From the sequence record MT446422.1: a stretch of DNA of 64,000 bases. One strand, given 5' to 3'. The notes under the pieces were generated by a model. That model saw nothing but the letters and a program-made list of their open reading frames with translations, searched no databases and was not told the DNA's origin. Every line of letters starts with the position of its first letter. Within the stretch, counting starts at the first letter, position 1. This DNA is from Escherichia virus TH57. Position numbers and translations under genes: made by a program. Below, one piece after another: positions 13,739-51,467 of this stretch.

Positions 13739-13843
13739 TTGAGGCGTGTACTGACGGATGGGATATCTTTCGATTTGGTGCTGCATGTTTTTGTTTTGGA
13801 ATCGTGTTTAGCATGTGCATGCATGGTATTTTTGGAAAGTAGT

Positions 13844-13871
13844 GTACAAACTCATGGGAGCAGAGTATAAT
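13844..13871 (+). promoter_or_regulatory. T4-type early promoter
   Basis: TGTACA, 16 nt, TATAAT. Confidence 0.5.
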
Positions 13872-13905
13872 GCTCCTACGGATTATAAAATTTGAGGAAA
13901 TGACT

Positions 13906-14388: not shown

Positions 14389-16249
<1,861 letters not shown>

Positions 16250-16275
16250 TGTATGTCCTCTTTGGTGATATACTA

Positions 16276-16283
16276 TATTTATA
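16276..16283 (-). promoter_or_regulatory. T4 late promoter (TATAAATA) for the HNH gene
   Basis: Minus-strand TATAAATA ~25 nt upstream of the HNH ATG, followed by SD AAAGAGGA. Confidence 0.5.
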
Positions 16284-16310
16284 CTCAAGTAGTGGAGATG
16301 TGGAAAACCT

Positions 16311-16508: not shown

Positions 16509-16716
16509 CAAACATCATGAAATTGAAGAAGAAGCTTATAAAGAGCTTCAGAAACTGGTAGGGCAAAATATGTCTCCTGCTCTTATCAACAACCTGGCTG
16601 CACTGCGTAATGACATCAACGAACGGTACAAGGGCGAATATTATGTTGAATTCGTTCCGCTGACTGAAGTCATTGACCGATTTATCGTTAATGTCAGGGT
16701 GCATACCGTCCATTAA
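16501..16716 (+). CDS. hypothetical protein
   Basis: Track ORF 16432..16716; ATG at 16501 overlaps the stop of the upstream ORF. Confidence 0.35.
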   Translation: MYNKHHEIEEEAYKELQKLVGQNMSPALINNLAALRNDINERYKGEYYVEFVPLTEVIDRFIVNVRVHTVH

Positions 16717-16741
16717 CGCTTTAAAAATTTTATGGTATAAT
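16717..16741 (+). promoter_or_regulatory. MotA-box-like middle promoter
   Basis: CGCTTTA, 12 nt, TATAAT, then GGGGTCTAGGTCC resembling the conserved GGTTCTAGACCC element. Confidence 0.45.
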
Positions 16742-16788
16742 GGGGTCTAGGTCCTTTGGATAATCCCAATAACTAAGCGAGAAAAGAA

Positions 16789-34663: not shown

Positions 34664-35287
34664 ATGACTTATGAATTTATTGTCCAAATTAAAAATAAAA
34701 CTATAAATTGTAGGGCTTTTACCTTGCGCGAATACAAAGATTTGCTTCAGGCAAAATTAGAAAAGCGTATGGAACCTGCAATAATTGAACTGCTTAATAA
34801 ATGCACTGATGCTAAAGGGTTAAACAAACAGGAAGCCGAGCTGCTTCTTATTAATCTCTGGGCAAATAGCCTCGGAGCTGTTAACGTCGAGCATACATGG
34901 GTATGTGAGTGCGGAAAGGAACAAGATATTCCTGTGACTATAAGTCGTGCAAGCATCGTGGATGAGTCTGAAGTTATTCGTGATTTCGGGGCATTTAAAA
35001 TTAAATTTCGTTATCCTGGACTGTTTGAAGACGGTGATAAAGGAAAAATGATTGCTTGTTGTATTGAATATATTATCACGGAAGGCGGTGAGCGCATCGT
35101 TGTTGATGACTTAAATGAAGCCGAAATCGAGGACCTGTACAATGCAATTACCCTCGATGATATAAATGCACTAACGGAAGAACTTCTCAAGCCACAGGTC
35201 CAAATGGCTATTCCTATCTCTTGCGAGTGTGGAGCGCATTCTGTCCATGTAATTAAGGGGCTTAAAGAATTCTTTAAGTTTATGTAA
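34664..35287 (+). CDS. 26: baseplate hub subunit gp26
   Basis: Track ORF 34631..35287; start at Met 12 after SD AAAGGAG; synteny with 51 and 25. Confidence 0.75.
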   Translation: MTYEFIVQIKNKTINCRAFTLREYKDLLQAKLEKRMEPAIIELLNKCTDAKGLNKQEAELLLINLWANSLGAVNVEHTWVCECGKEQDIPVTISRASIVDESEVIRDFGAFKIKFRYPGLFEDGDKGKMIACCIEYIITEGGERIVVDDLNEAEIEDLYNAITLDDINALTEELLKPQVQMAIPISCECGAHSVHVIKGLKEFFKFM

Positions 35288-35677
35288 ATGAATATAAACA
35301 AAATGTATAGCGATGTGTCTCCTGACTTGTCAATGAGTTGGGATAAAGACGTTGCTAAAGTAACCGGTGCAAGGTCTGTTAAGAACAGTCTTCTGGGTAT
35401 AATCACCACAAGAAAAGGGTCAAGGCCTTTTATGCCTGAATTTGGATGTGATATAAGTAATCAGCTTTTTGAGAATATCACACCATTAATCACAGATACC
35501 ATTAAACGCAACATCGTCTCCGCGGTGCGGAACTTCGAACCAAGGATAAGCAATTTACAGGTTGCAGTTGTCCCTATGTATGATGATAACTCCATTATCG
35601 TAACGGTTCAGTTTAGCATTGTTGATGACCCTGACACCCTCGAACAAATCAGGATTCAGTTAAGTCAAAACGGTTAA
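35288..35677 (+). CDS. 25: baseplate wedge subunit gp25
   Basis: 129 aa; LLGIITTRKGSRPFMPEFGCD matches T4 gp25. Confidence 0.9.
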   Translation: MNINKMYSDVSPDLSMSWDKDVAKVTGARSVKNSLLGIITTRKGSRPFMPEFGCDISNQLFENITPLITDTIKRNIVSAVRNFEPRISNLQVAVVPMYDDNSIIVTVQFSIVDDPDTLEQIRIQLSQNG

Positions 35678-35702
35678 TGCTTTAATTTTATGGCTGTATA
35701 AT
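35678..35702 (+). promoter_or_regulatory. T4-type middle promoter for uvsY (MotA box TGCTTTA)
   Basis: AATGCTTTA, 12 nt, TATAAT, followed by conserved GGTTCTAGACCC; starts right after the gene 25 stop. Confidence 0.6.
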
Positions 35703-35730
35703 GGTTCTAGACCCTTACATTGGATACATT

Positions 35731-36165
35731 ATGAAAACAGAGATTGAATATAAGTTAGAAGTCTTTCAGGATGAGTTAGATGCAGATTTAAAAATTGATG
35801 GTACTCAACTTCAATATGAAACACAAAACAACGTTTTGTTGCATAGCAAATGGTTGAGATTGTATACCAACTGCAAGAAAGAAATAATGCGTCTTGAGAT
35901 TCAGAAGAAAACTGCACTGAAAAAACGGCTAGACCATTATACAGGAAGGGGTGACCCAGGGGAAGAAGTATGCATGGATGTATACGAGAAGTCAGAATTG
36001 AAAACAGTCATGGCCGCAGATTCAAACATACTGAAGATTGATACTTCAATTCAGTATTGGGCACTACTCCAGGACTTCTGTAGCGCTGCATTAGATGGTG
36101 TTAAGTCACGAAGTTTCGCACTTAAACATATGTTAGAAATAAGACAATTCGAGGCAGGCAAGTAA
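35731..36165 (+). CDS. uvsY: recombination mediator UvsY
   Basis: Start at Met 11 of track ORF 35701..36165; KKTALKKRLDHYTGRGD, VDTSIQYW, C-terminal IRQFEAGK match T4 UvsY. Confidence 0.9.
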   Translation: MKTEIEYKLEVFQDELDADLKIDGTQLQYETQNNVLLHSKWLRLYTNCKKEIMRLEIQKKTALKKRLDHYTGRGDPGEEVCMDVYEKSELKTVMAADSNILKIDTSIQYWALLQDFCSAALDGVKSRSFALKHMLEIRQFEAGK

Positions 36166-36398
36166 TGCGATATTCTATCGACGATGCGTTTAACCAAGAC
36201 GAAGAGTTCGAAGAAGAAATTAAGTATATGATGAAGGAATGGAAATTGAATCGCGCAGATATTCGTATCTGCGCTGACCACCCTTGTGGTGAAGATGTTA
36301 TCTATGTTAAAGGTAAATTTGCAGGATACATCGATGATGCGTTCTATTCTCACAATATGGGGATAGATACCGGTATGAGATACTTTAAGGAAAATTAA
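36165..36398 (+). CDS. hypothetical protein (uvsY.-1-like)
   Basis: 77-aa ORF overlapping the uvsY stop. Confidence 0.45.
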   Translation: MRYSIDDAFNQDEEFEEEIKYMMKEWKLNRADIRICADHPCGEDVIYVKGKFAGYIDDAFYSHNMGIDTGMRYFKEN

Positions 36399-36509
36399 AT
36401 GAAAAATATTAGTAAGATTCTCGACGAGATGGTTATCTCTGCAAACCGAATAACTGAAATTGTTAATGAGATGAAAGCTCGTGCTGCTATTATGAAGAGC
36501 ACTAAATAG
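36399..36509 (+). CDS. small hypothetical protein (36 aa, uvsY.-2-like)
   Basis: ATG directly after the upstream stop; below the track cutoff. Confidence 0.3.
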   Translation: MKNISKILDEMVISANRITEIVNEMKARAAIMKSTK

Positions 36510-36537
36510 ATATGTAAGTTTAACTGAGGAGACAATC

Positions 36538-36705
36538 ATGTCAGATAAGATTTGTGTTGTCTGTAAAACTCCAATCGATTCTGCATTGGTTGTGGATACA
36601 GACCAAGGTCCGGTGCATCCGGGCGCCTGTTATAATTATGTTCAGAGTTTGCCAGTTACGGAAAATACAGAAGAGCAACTGAACGAGACCCAACTTTTAA
36701 TTTAG
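36538..36705 (+). CDS. small Cys-containing hypothetical protein (55 aa)
   Basis: SD GAGGAGA; MSDKICVVCKTPID...; followed by terminator; below the track cutoff. Confidence 0.3.
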   Translation: MSDKICVVCKTPIDSALVVDTDQGPVHPGACYNYVQSLPVTENTEEQLNETQLLI

Positions 36706-36732
36706 CTAGTGTTGTTAACCATTTTTGGTTTT

Positions 36733-36760
36733 GCCCCTTCCTTTTGGTTGGGGCCTTTTT
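36733..36760 (+). terminator. Rho-independent terminator after the uvsY operon
   Basis: GCCCC ... GGGGC stem followed by CTTTTTA. Confidence 0.45.
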
Positions 36761-36762
36761 AT

Positions 36763-36990
36763 TTAGAAATCTTCGTCTTCGTCGTCGTCCATATCCTCAA
36801 GCTCGGCGCGTTTACCGGCAAGAGCATCACGAACACTGATATCATCGGAATCTTTTAGTTCAGCTTCTTTGCTGCGTTTTTTATAATAGCCTTCCAACTC
36901 CTTCAGACCGTCCATGGTCTGACAGGAACCAATCTTAGCCATAAAGCCTTCAATTGATGCTTCGTACATAATTTCTTCAAAGGATTTCAT
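36763..36990 (-). CDS. UvsW.1 small acidic protein
   Basis: 75 aa with acidic C-terminus (DMDDDEDEDF), immediately downstream of uvsW. Confidence 0.6.
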   Translation of the reverse strand: MKSFEEIMYEASIEGFMAKIGSCQTMDGLKELEGYYKKRSKEAELKDSDDISVRDALAGKRAELEDMDDDEDEDF

Positions 36991-38489
36991 TATATTTCCA
37001 CCTGTTTAATTACATAATTGAATTGTTCGTCTGCATATCGTTGTATGCGTTCAAGACCATGCTTTAGAGCAAAGTTCAAATGAACATATTTCTTTTTAGC
37101 ATTTGCTGATTTAGGTTTAACACCCATATCATCAACGATATCAAAAACGTTTGCGGTCGATTTAGATTCATGTTTTCGAAGCACACGGCCAATTGTCTGG
37201 AGTACAATTACCTTTGATTTGACCGGGTGAGCGAAAATAATATGATGAAGGTTTTTAACGGAAATCCCCGTCGAGAATACACCATATGAAGCTACAACAA
37301 TAATTCCCTTTCCATTCTCTGCCATGACCTTCAGAGCATTACGGGTTTCGGTATCAACTTCCCCGGAAACATAATACACTTTCTCATGACCAGCTTCCTT
37401 AAGCATTTCAAACATCGATTTGCCATGCTCGATATTCTTAAACATCAAAAAGACGTTTTCATCTTTTTTAGCAAGCTTGAGAGCAAGATTTGTTACCCAT
37501 TTATTTCGGCGTGTAGCTTTTGTAATTACCTTAATTTCATCCTGATAAGTTTTACCTTTCATTTTAACGGTAAATTCATCAGGATAACGAAGGAAAATAC
37601 TATTTATTTTAAGGTCAGTAACCTGACCGTCTTCCATCAATTTAGATGTTGATACTGGTTTAAAGATATCACCAAACAGACCCATATATTGCATAAGGTT
37701 GGCTTTGCCGTCACGGAGTGAGCCTGACAGACCAAATTTAAACATACAATTCGTAAGGCCTTCGATAACCGTCGAAATTGATTTACCTGTAGCCATGTGA
37801 CATTCGTCATTCATAAACTGGCCGAACTGTTCAAACCATTCTTTAGGTTGTTTTACAGCCGTCTGATAAGTCGATACATAAATCATCGCATCAGAATCGC
37901 GTTTAGTCCCGGAACGAATACCCAGACAAGCTTCACGAGGGAAAAGCCGATAATCAACAAAGTCATTAATCATCTGGTCAACAAGCGCGGTTGTAGGAAC
38001 AAGGATAAGCACCTTGCCTTCATAGTTCTCGAGATAATATCGCGCCAGAAGCGCCTGGATGAGGCTTTTACCCGCAGACGTAGGTAAGTTCAGAATCTTT
38101 CTTCTGTTGACCAGACCATCATATACGGCGTCAGATTGATACCAATGGGGCGTTATCTTAGTATTGCCTGAATAGATTTCTTTTGACTCGACCCATTTGT
38201 CGAATTCTTCGCGAGAGATTTCTTCTTTCTCGGTGATTTGTGGGTCAATCCAGAATGAATAGCCAAACTGGTCAGCGAACTTTTTAATTTGATTAACCAA
38301 ACCGTATGGTAATTTACGATTGTAATCCAGGAGGCGGATTCGTCCGTCCCAAACTCCCTGCTTGAATTTTGGATTGAAGCGATAGTTTTCAGCTTCGAAG
38401 CTGAAGTAATCACGGAGTTCGTAGAAGATTCCATCTTCACATTCAACATGCACGTGACTAAAATTTAGAAAGTTGATTTTAATATCCAT
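36990..38489 (-). CDS. uvsW: DNA/RNA helicase UvsW (SF2)
   Basis: Start at Met 14 of track ORF; Walker A LPTSAGKS, DEAH-like NDECH, helicase motif VI; synteny. Confidence 0.85.
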   Translation of the reverse strand: MDIKINFLNFSHVHVECEDGIFYELRDYFSFEAENYRFNPKFKQGVWDGRIRLLDYNRKLPYGLVNQIKKFADQFGYSFWIDPQITEKEEISREEFDKWVESKEIYSGNTKITPHWYQSDAVYDGLVNRRKILNLPTSAGKSLIQALLARYYLENYEGKVLILVPTTALVDQMINDFVDYRLFPREACLGIRSGTKRDSDAMIYVSTYQTAVKQPKEWFEQFGQFMNDECHMATGKSISTVIEGLTNCMFKFGLSGSLRDGKANLMQYMGLFGDIFKPVSTSKLMEDGQVTDLKINSIFLRYPDEFTVKMKGKTYQDEIKVITKATRRNKWVTNLALKLAKKDENVFLMFKNIEHGKSMFEMLKEAGHEKVYYVSGEVDTETRNALKVMAENGKGIIVVASYGVFSTGISVKNLHHIIFAHPVKSKVIVLQTIGRVLRKHESKSTANVFDIVDDMGVKPKSANAKKKYVHLNFALKHGLERIQRYADEQFNYVIKQVEI

Positions 38490-40985: not shown

Positions 40986-40992
40986 CCCTTTT

Positions 40993-41018
40993 TGCTTCAA
41001 ATAAAAATGCGGTATAAT
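40993..41018 (+). promoter_or_regulatory. T4-type middle promoter (MotA box TGCTTCA) upstream of rnlB
   Basis: TTTGCTTCA, 13 nt, TATAAT, followed by conserved GGTTCTAGACCC. Confidence 0.55.
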
Positions 41019-41114
41019 GGTTCTAGACCCTTTGTGACTATTAATTCCTTTCAGAGAAAGAAAGTATAGTGGGTCTAATTTATAATGATATTTATAACAT
41101 CAAAGTGAGAGATT

Positions 41115-42122
41115 ATGTTTAAAAAATACAACAGCCTTGAAAATCACTATAACAACAAGTTCATTGAAAAGATTCGTCTACAAGGCTTCACCAGCGGTGA
41201 ATGGGTAGCTCGTGAAAAGATTCATGGTACCAACTTTTCACTAATCATTGAACAAGACAATGTGACATGTGCGAAACGCACTGGACCTATCCTGCCTGCA
41301 GAAGATTTCTATGGATATGAAATTGTATTAAAGAACTATGCAGATTCTATTAAATCTGTACAGAAACTTTTGCAGGATATTAATTACCAGTCATATCAGA
41401 TTTATGGCGAGTTTGCTGGTACAGGTATTCAGAAGAATGTTGATTACGGTGATAAAGATTTTTATGTATTTGATATCCGCGTTACTAAGGAAGATGGCTC
41501 TGAATCCGTCCTGACTGACACACTTATGGAAGCCTTCTGCATTATTCATAAGTTTAAAGTTGCTCCGCGCCTGGCTACCGGAAGCTTTGAAGACCTTATT
41601 AAGCTCCCTAATGACCTGGATTCTGTGGTCCCTGATTACAATTTTACAGTGGATAACGCAGGATTGACTACAGCAAATACCACTGATTTTGATGCAAAGG
41701 TGGAAGGTAAAGTATTCACTGCTGAAGGATTTGTATTAAAACCTGATGTCCCTGCCTGGTTACCTAACGGCGAGCGTGTAGCGATTAAATGTAAGAACTC
41801 TAAATTCAGTGAAAAGAAAAAGTCTGATAAGCCTATTAAGGCTGCTGTTGTGTTGTCCCAGGAAGACCTGGATATTTTATGGAAGTTCACTGATTATGTG
41901 ACTGTTAACCGCATCAATAATGTTATCAGTAAGATTGGGGAAGTATCGCCGAAGGATTTTGGGAAGGTAATGGGTTTGACTGTCCAGGATATCCTGGAAG
42001 AAGCGGGTCGTGAAGGCCTTGAATTAACCCAGACGGAAAATCCTGTTGAAGTTAAAAAGCAACTTATCGCAAATGTAAGAGAAACATTAAGACATGTTTG
42101 GATTGCATTAATTAGTGAATAA
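41115..42122 (+). CDS. rnlB: RNA ligase 2
   Basis: 335 aa; [19 protein letters not shown], nucleotidyl-transferase lysine motif [30 protein letters not shown] match T4 Rnl2. Confidence 0.9.
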
Positions 42123-50726: not shown

Positions 50727-50801
50727 CTAGGTAATATGATTCATCAATAAATGTATTTAGGTCGCTGGGGGAGCTCTGAGGAGTCCGTAGAACCGATGAT
50801 A

Positions 50802-50827
50802 TGCTTTTATTTATAGCATTGTATAAT
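50802..50827 (+). promoter_or_regulatory. Middle-promoter-like element on the plus strand (antisense to the HNH gene); also reads as a minus-strand late promoter
   Basis: ATGCTTTT, 13 nt, TATAAT, then GGTTCTACGG resembling the conserved element; the same bases contain TATAAATA on the minus strand (50808-50815). Confidence 0.35.
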
Positions 50828-50861
50828 GGTTCTACGGTTTACTGCTTAATTACATTTACTG

Positions 50862-51467
50862 TCAGGATAATATATCCCATAAGTCAATACTATTTGATTT
50901 TCCTTTGGACCTATTAGATTCCCAAGTGACTATTTCTAAATTGTTGAGCGAAGCGATAACAGTCTCTGGTATATGATTATAAAATCCATACGCAATAGAA
51001 ACTTTATGGTCAAGTTGGTATGCACCTTCTTCCCCACATTTTCCTATCTTATCTGCATTTTCCCATGTTGACCAAATATTCTTTAGATGTTTTGCTCTTG
51101 TCAATGCATGAACACGTTGAGCGTACAAATAGAATTCACGCTTATTGCCTTTCCAGCTATGATGTTTTTCACCACGTTGCCATGGTCTTGGCACACCGCC
51201 TTGTGCAATAACATTCTTTTGTCCAATATCTTTTCTTGAACACGCCTTACATAAATGTTTATCAACGCGACGAAGCAACTGAATCCCTCGCTCAAAATGT
51301 ATCCCACATTCATCACAGGAACACTCAATCTTTTTATTACTATTATCTGGCATTTGTTCAACTGGAACAGAAATCACATCATGGTATGTTAGAGGTTTAC
51401 CTAAGTATTCGCTCCACCACTTTGCATGATTTCGTATTTGAACTTCAACAAATTTAGAAATAATCAC
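50862..51467 (-). CDS. HNH endonuclease-like protein with N-terminal Cys cluster
   Basis: 201 aa; zinc-finger-like CSCDECG ... CKACSRK; C-terminal HNH motif QLDHKVSIAYGF ... NLEIVTWESNRSKG; between genes 18 and 19. Confidence 0.6.
   Translation of the reverse strand: MIISKFVEVQIRNHAKWWSEYLGKPLTYHDVISVPVEQMPDNSNKKIECSCDECGIHFERGIQLLRRVDKHLCKACSRKDIGQKNVIAQGGVPRPWQRGEKHHSWKGNKREFYLYAQRVHALTRAKHLKNIWSTWENADKIGKCGEEGAYQLDHKVSIAYGFYNHIPETVIASLNNLEIVTWESNRSKGKSNSIDLWDILS

Follow-up and report, generated by a model that had tools for sequence, protein, structure and literature searches.

Why should a short run of bases just past the -10 box be repeated at promoters scattered along a T4-like genome? 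The question is raised by the uvsY promoter in a 64,000-nucleotide stretch of Escherichia virus TH57 (MT446422.1), the whole of which is referred to here as the window. The phage is a T4-like coliphage of the genus Gaprivervirus (Tevenvirinae), with SP18, VR7 and TH54 as near relatives. Over positions 35000-37000 of the window, identity is 99.6% with Escherichia virus TH54 and 98.8% with Shigella phage SP18. Early and middle transcription run along the + strand of the window and, according to the SP18 annotation, the local gene order is gp26-gp25-uvsY ... hoc-two small ORFs-rnlB. A preliminary description of this DNA had proposed that a near-palindromic block around CTAG follows the -10 box at several middle promoters, and that it marks either a regulator binding site or a conserved feature at the 5' end of the RNA.

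The repeat itself is as described. The exact 19-mer GTATAATGGTTCTAGACCC occurs twice in the window and only twice, at 35696-35714 (upstream of uvsY) and 41012-41030 (upstream of rnlB). There are also two variants. One, at 16735-16754, precedes cd.3 and reads GTATAATGGGGTCTAGGTCC, which has an additional G; the other, at 50821-50839, reads GTATAATGGTTCTACGGTT and lies between gp18 and gp19, antisense to an HNH gene. There are two matches to TATAATGGTTCTAGACCC in the window, compared with 0.05 expected from shuffles, and six to TATAATGGNNCTA with at most one mismatch, compared with 1.24 expected. The likeness continues past TATAAT and is not limited to the hexamer. The gene contexts that had been given (uvsY, rnlB, antisense to HNH) are all correct. 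The four copies, numbered 1 to 4, and the elements around them are:

35676..35684, + strand: MotA box AATGCTTTA of copy 1 (uvsY middle promoter), with a 12-bp spacer to the -10 box
35697..35702, + strand: -10 hexamer TATAAT of copy 1, a sequence match
35703..35714, + strand: block GGTTCTAGACCC of copy 1, comprising the discriminator (-6 to -1), the predicted start A at 35709 and then +2 to +6
40991..40999, + strand: MotA box TTTGCTTCA of copy 2 (upstream of rnlB), with a 13-bp spacer
41013..41030, + strand: -10 box and block TATAATGGTTCTAGACCC of copy 2, an exact repeat of copy 1, with the predicted start at 41025
41065..41077, + strand: weak tandem copy TATAGTGGGTCTA, a relaxed-pattern match downstream of copy 2
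16715..16723, + strand: MotA box variant AACGCTTTA of copy 3 (upstream of cd.3), with a 12-bp spacer
16736..16754, + strand: -10 box and block TATAATGGGGTCTAGGTCC of copy 3, with one extra G and the predicted start near 16749
50800..50808, + strand: MotA-box-like TATGCTTTT of copy 4, with a 13-bp spacer, read directly from the sequence
50822..50839, + strand: -10 box and block TATAATGGTTCTACGGTT of copy 4, with the predicted start at 50834, antisense to HNH and gp18
50785..50794, no strand assigned: CCGTAGAACC, perfect inverted-repeat partner of GGTTCTACGG (50828-50837)

The uvsY start codon at 35731 gives a 22-nt leader from the predicted start at 35709; the rnlB and cd.3 start codons are at 41116 and 16789. 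The strand opposite the MotA-like box of copy 4 reads TATAAATA, which is the late-promoter consensus (minus strand, upstream of gp19). The arms CCGTAGAACC and GGTTCTACGG bracket the whole copy-4 promoter; they are 10 nt long, 100% complementary, 33 nt apart and kept in SP18. Together with the 33-nt loop between them, which carries the minus-strand late-promoter motif, they span 50785-50837.

Copy 4 is indeed antisense to the HNH gene, but its real home is the gp18-gp19 intergenic region. The HNH gene encodes a free-standing endonuclease (50862-51467, minus strand, between gp18 and gp19; gp19.1 in VR7) and was found in only five database phages, including VR7, RZ and DK-13. It is inserted directly after the copy-4 block, in VR7-like phages only, and is missing from SP18 and TH54. 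Because SP18 has copy 4 and lacks the HNH gene, we assign this copy to the gp18-gp19 spacer and regard the gene as a later insertion. Its absence from TH54, despite the 99.6% identity at uvsY, indicates that the window is mosaic. The early pseT-cd region contains a second HNH-type endonuclease ORF (254 aa; 15524-16288, minus strand), some 450 bp upstream of the promoter copy at cd.3.

T4 middle promoters are the textbook example of sigma appropriation. We took as a MotA box the sequence (a/t)(a/t)TGCTT(t/c)A, with core CTT, centred near -30 and 11-13 bp upstream of the -10 box. A MotA-box-like GCTT motif is present 12-13 bp upstream of the -10 box in all four copies, each of which has a perfect TATAAT. 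A scan for sigma70 -35/-10 pairs detected copy 3 (TTAACG) and missed copies 1, 2 and 4, the outcome to be expected when a promoter has no -35 element. The annotation of SP18, a phage with 98.8% identity to the window at the uvsY locus, includes motA and asiA; both genes lie outside the window. With a MotA box 11-13 bp from a sigma70-type -10 box, and with MotA and AsiA encoded in SP18, the copies have the features of MotA middle promoters, and we infer that they are MotA-dependent.

Other promoters in the window with a MotA box and TATAAT (at 1372, 1632, 18142 and 24347) lack the block, which therefore marks a sub-class and is not part of the general middle-promoter consensus. Isolated blocks (at most one mismatch) lacking TATAAT were absent from the window, the SP18 regions fetched and T4. 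The idea of a free-standing site was dropped, as every copy is tied to TATAAT. In a scan of IMG/VR with the pattern TGCTTTA-N(11-13)-TATAATG, which provides a crude background only, none of the 120 matches listed (unrelated contigs) had the block.

Homology with T4 (NC_000866) makes it possible to place the transcription starts. Homologs are PuvsY (TATAATgaatctaagtcc), PnrdC.7 (TATAATggttctaagccc) and the gene-34 internal promoter P34i (TATAATggtcccagagag), with mapped starts at 115371, 53325 and 153011, respectively (Hinton 2010, PMC2988021 Table 1). Each of these starts is the A of (T/C)C(T/C)A, seven bases past the hexamer. By homology, the block would span -6 to +6 and include the discriminator, the start and the first transcribed bases. 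The predicted starts are 35709 (from the T4 PuvsY start at 115371), 41025, approximately 16749 and 50834. Of the block, therefore, probably no more than the final 6 nt, about half, are transcribed. Among the 58 T4 middle promoters, discriminators with GG occur in about four, plus PuvsY with GA, and most are A/T-rich. MotA activation therefore does not require the block. As the preliminary description had claimed, conservation runs through the transcription start region, beyond the MotA box and -10 box that MotA/AsiA require.

A census with a relaxed pattern over the window, the rest of SP18 and T4 identified further members. In Gaprivervirus, members precede uvsY, rnlB and cd.3, and another is P34i (SP18 -153635); antisense members are at gp18/19, srd/modA (SP18 +11414) and gene 3/gene 2 (SP18 +73490). 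The T4 members are uvsY, nrdC.7, P34i and antisense copies at srd/modA (+11885) and gene 3/gene 2 (+75988). Antisense copies are also present in JS98 and RB69, both at srd/modA (L063:2200-2225 and L215:3110-3135, respectively) and at gene 3/gene 2 (L212:3900-3925 and L217:133-158). The copy in gene 34 was found in T4, SP18 and JS98, the three phages for which gene-34 loci were covered, and the uvsY copy is present in RB69-like phages. Thus the uvsY, srd/modA and gene 3/gene 2 positions are conserved in four genera (T4, SP18, JS98 and RB69). The srd/modA and gene 3/gene 2 sites lie just past the 3' end of a gene and point back into it. Neither is among the 58 T4 middle promoters listed by Hinton (2010, PMC2988021), and from their sequences we describe these cassettes as middle-promoter-like.

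Constraint between genera was assessed using 11 distinct PuvsY orthologs, chosen by UvsY homology or gene context rather than by motif and then aligned on TATAATG, an alignment that fixes -6. TATAATG is kept in all 11. The majority-base fraction is 0.77 over -6 to -1, 0.82 at +1 and 0.9 at +3, compared with 0.46 in the spacer, 0.66 in the MotA-box region and 0.58 over +2 to +8. The positions conserved between genera are mostly untranscribed (-6, -5, -3 and -1, together with +1); +3 is the transcribed exception, and +2 to +8 overall drifts. From these fractions we conclude that what is constrained between genera is chiefly the untranscribed DNA near the start.

Within a genome, paralogs have the transcribed part in common. 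Four T4 copies read TCTAAG(T/C)CC, three copies in SP18 and the window share TCTAGACC, and the RB69 version, T(C/T)TGAGTTCC, occurs at uvsY and srd/modA. Over -6 to +10, in a comparison of three loci in four genomes, identity is 0.69 for different loci within a genome and 0.58 for the same locus between genomes, and within-genome similarity as high as observed was reached in 2 of 576 label permutations. This is a pattern of concerted evolution among dispersed copies, as judged from the alignments. Identity is confined to short tracts (about -14 to +8), beyond which the flanks have sharply diverged; two window copies are identical over 21-22 bp and differ in their flanks. In JS98 the copies differ among themselves.

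Around CTAG, the block in the window does form a near-palindrome, but its homologs in T4, JS98 and RB69 do not. Since it is restricted to the Gaprivervirus versions, palindromy is not a conserved property, and operator symmetry was rejected as one. The window has 41 CTAG sites where base composition predicts 235, a strong depletion, yet the tetranucleotide is retained by three block copies, which argues for selection on the block. In T4 there are 256 such sites, with 548 expected.

Three copies, at rnlB, cd.3 and gp18/19, are gains specific to Gaprivervirus. In JS98 the genes that flank the cd.3 copy abut; compared with that phage, the copy is a clean insertion of 65 bp, and the inserted DNA contains a MotA box, a -10 box, the block, a leader and a Shine-Dalgarno sequence. 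Over its full length, the rnlB copy most resembles the one at gene 3/gene 2 in SP18, which belongs to the same lineage. A repeated promoter-leader-Shine-Dalgarno unit is thus tied to indels between related phages, as in the PeSL and PmSL cassettes described previously (Arbiol 2010, PMC2839356; Comeau 2014, PMC4122927). The upstream stem-loop typical of PeSL/PmSL units was not found at copies 1-3; copy 4 has the bracketing 10-bp inverted repeat instead.

On balance we lean, if not strongly, towards the view that the block, real and above chance expectation, is the core of a paralogous family of -35-independent middle-promoter cassettes that is homogenised within genomes. Each cassette would consist of a MotA box at about -30, TATAAT at -12 to -7, a discriminator of the form G(G/A)N(T/C)C(T/C) at -6 to -1, a start A seven bases past the hexamer and GC-rich first 5-7 transcribed bases. 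Non-template G at -6/-5 is the contact of sigma region 1.2. The MotA box and -10 box would position the MotA/AsiA-remodelled sigma70 polymerase, while the G bases and the pyrimidine-A start context may stabilise the open complex and fix the point at which transcription starts, the reliance on both arising because there is no -35 contact. The copies would be homologous by descent, having spread as 50-65 bp cassettes into new intergenic sites, with their likeness within a genome maintained by duplication or gene conversion; such a history would leave two window copies identical over a short tract with differing flanks. The explanation builds on the promoter anatomy, the homology to mapped T4 promoters, the positional conservation in four genera, the cassette gain and the within-genome similarity, and adds to these the putative contacts with sigma 1.2 and core and a presumed homogenising process. 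The G..YCYA start context is also seen at early promoters of these phages, which have conserved leaders of their own; this points to RNA polymerase contacts and fits polymerase preferences plus cassette homology. Some points weigh against the explanation. T4, SP18, JS98 and RB69 all infect E. coli or Shigella and thus meet one common RNA polymerase, so that polymerase contacts alone do not predict genome-specific versions of the block. Short identity tracts with sharply diverged flanks are unusual for simple gene conversion, and most T4 middle promoters work with A/T-rich discriminators.

Genome-specific versions among paralogs (T4 TCTAAGTCC, SP18 TCTAGACC, RB69 T(C/T)TGAGTTCC) could instead indicate an operator for a phage-encoded, lineage-specific factor that reads either the DNA from -6 to +8 or the first bases of the nascent RNA, with uvsY, the gene-34 internal promoter and the antisense promoters as its regulon. 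The within-genome similarity would fit a co-evolving factor, and the sharp ends of the identity tracts at about -14 and +8 and the retention of CTAG despite its genome-wide avoidance are consistent with a binding site. We nevertheless give this reading a small chance of being right, considering the lack of isolated copies outside promoters, the heterogeneity of the JS98 copies and the unconserved palindrome. We know of no candidate factor, and the same pattern is explained by cassette duplication or conversion, for which the cd.3 insertion and the rnlB copy are direct evidence. If the copies are simply recent duplicates, the bases downstream of the -10 box might have no function and their identity might be about to decay. 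The lineage-specific gains at rnlB, cd.3 and gp18/19 are compatible with this, yet at uvsY, srd/modA, gene 3/gene 2 and gene 34 the discriminator and start context have been retained in four genera while spacers and leaders diverged, and we consider the idea very unlikely. A conserved 5' RNA feature, such as a stabilising hairpin or a processing or translational signal, is highly improbable. The rnlB copy could form a 5'-terminal hairpin, TAGACCC...GGGTCTA (41025-41077; -13.3 kcal/mol, z = -2.0), the 3' arm of which is part of the weak promoter-like copy TATAGTGGGTCTA; the T4 gene 3/gene 2 leader also folds (z = -4.2), and a CCAATAAC motif recurs in several leaders. However, the first 60 nt of 12 family transcripts have no common fold (z at or below -2 in two, with no significant fold in the other ten), and Rfam covariance models at the gathering score gave no matches in the whole window. 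Moreover, only six nucleotides of the block (+1 to +6) are transcribed, +2 to +8 is barely above the spacer in inter-genus conservation although untranscribed -6 to -1 is conserved, and antisense copies have no downstream gene. The RNA alternative of the preliminary description is accordingly not sustained.

The family might alternatively provide primer promoters for R-loop replication origins, with a GC-rich 5' clamp followed by A+T-rich DNA keeping the transcript hybridised. Copy 1 is the positional ortholog of T4 PuvsY (oriF), and the gene-34 internal promoter (oriG) has a related block in T4, SP18 and JS98. A G(G/A) discriminator, uncommon among T4 middle promoters, is present at both proven R-loop origins; antisense members without an obvious coding target could also be accommodated. 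The plasmid screens of Kreuzer and Alberts reportedly recovered only ori(uvsY) and ori(34). Downstream GC content is 0.28 in the T4 family and 0.32 (sd 0.05) at other T4 middle promoters, a difference of less than one sd, so that downstream A+T content gives no distinctive sign of a DNA unwinding element. Both oriF and oriG are R-loop origins driven by MotA-dependent promoters (PMC3016281; PMC2988021). The five T4 members lie 0-5.5 kb from five early-active origins (PMC3016281), although this proximity argument is post hoc. According to the same review, no motif is common to all T4 origins, no middle promoter lies near oriE, and R-loop formation needs no specific sequence (PMC3016281). We regard an origin-primer role for the family as quite unlikely. 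A similarly doubtful suggestion is that -6 to +8 is read by a lineage-specific factor, or serves as a functional code, marking a class of primer and antisense middle promoters. If true, that class would include oriF, oriG and the conserved antisense srd/modA and gene 3/gene 2 promoters, the block would provide the first signature in sequence that T4-type origins have in common, and co-evolution would account for the versions seen in each genome.

Other readings of the start region were rejected. HRRASWW is the NAD-capping consensus, and the -3 to +4 context does not match it; a T4 NAD-cap preprint makes no mention of uvsY or nrdC.7. BoxA-like antitermination, a primase GTT site and anti-Shine-Dalgarno pairing each need bases that are not conserved across the family. 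A (C/T)CAATAAC motif recurs 9-25 nt past the predicted start in the window (16760-16775), at gene 3/gene 2 of SP18 and JS98 and at T4 uvsY, in whose leader it occurs twice.

Early promoters of these phages have features of their own. In SP18 (e.g., 59175, 19352, 167789, 48090 and 47513, all minus strand) they form sub-families with identical leaders after TATAAT, namely GACCCTATCAACTAC(T/G)GGAG, GTTCCCATACTGAGTT and GACCCCACTGGAG, which are PeSL-type promoter-leader-Shine-Dalgarno cassettes. Also present is a class of early promoters with inverted repeats flanking the -10 box: GGGAGC-agag-TATAAT-GCTCC in the window (13842-13890, + strand), GGGGTC...GACCCC in SP18 (6910 and 166751, both minus strand) and GGGACC...GGTCCC in T4 (7191, minus strand). 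The covariation of these repeats suggests a conserved stem with the -10 box in its loop.

Overall, the block family is, from its sequence features, a sub-class of a well-known promoter type and not a new kind of element. Like T4 PuvsY, PnrdC.7 and P34i, its members lack a -35 element and have a MotA box placed 11-13 bp ahead of a sigma70 -10 box. T4 PnrdC.7 (TATAATGGTTCTAAGCCC) differs from the window block at two of 12 positions (an AG/GA swap), and T4 PuvsY (TATAATGAATCTAAGTCC) has the same gene position as copy 1. Unlike these cassettes, the published T4 consensus (MotA box, TGn, TATAAT) stops at the -10 box. The G at -6/-5 after TATAAT, combined with the lack of a usable -35 contact, recalls sigma70 promoters with a GGG(A) discriminator element or an extended -10. 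Discriminator G bases are said to stabilise open complexes, in 2006 work by Haugen and by Feklistov. The sigma 1.2 element covers only 2-3 of the 12 block positions and leaves the TCTA context and the genome-specific +2 to +6 unexplained.

The comparison with oriF and oriG is one of position and composition: copy 1 is at the oriF position, and the oriG promoter is matched by those inside gene 34 of SP18 and JS98. Both T4 origins have a middle promoter followed by A+T-rich DNA, and oriG, like copy 4, is antisense to a late gene. However, oriF and oriG are defined by function, through plasmid replication and a persistent R-loop. PeSL and PmSL units are likewise short, repeated intergenic promoter cassettes with a leader and Shine-Dalgarno sequence; they adjoin indels and have been proposed to recombine mutually, and a Mot-box PmSL occurs in phage nt-1 (PMC2839356, PMC4122927). 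PeSLs have a stem-loop just upstream of the promoter, which copies 1-3 lack, whereas the arms at copy 4 bracket the promoter. Also unlike PeSL/PmSL units, half of the block family occupies conserved core positions and is not confined to hyperplastic regions.

In the openly searchable literature we found no mention of a discriminator/start block common to several middle promoters, of its genome-specific forms or of antisense members; nor did a search with the sequence of the block as a string yield anything relevant. Three aspects are new: the shared block, antisense members that are conserved, and promoter copies that evolve in concert although dispersed. Should the block do no more than optimise polymerase contacts, promoter annotation would be usefully refined and little else gained. 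If confirmed, the finding would provide testable leads on what separates origin or primer promoters from ordinary middle promoters, and would reveal how promoter cassettes move about T4-like genomes and become homogenised there.
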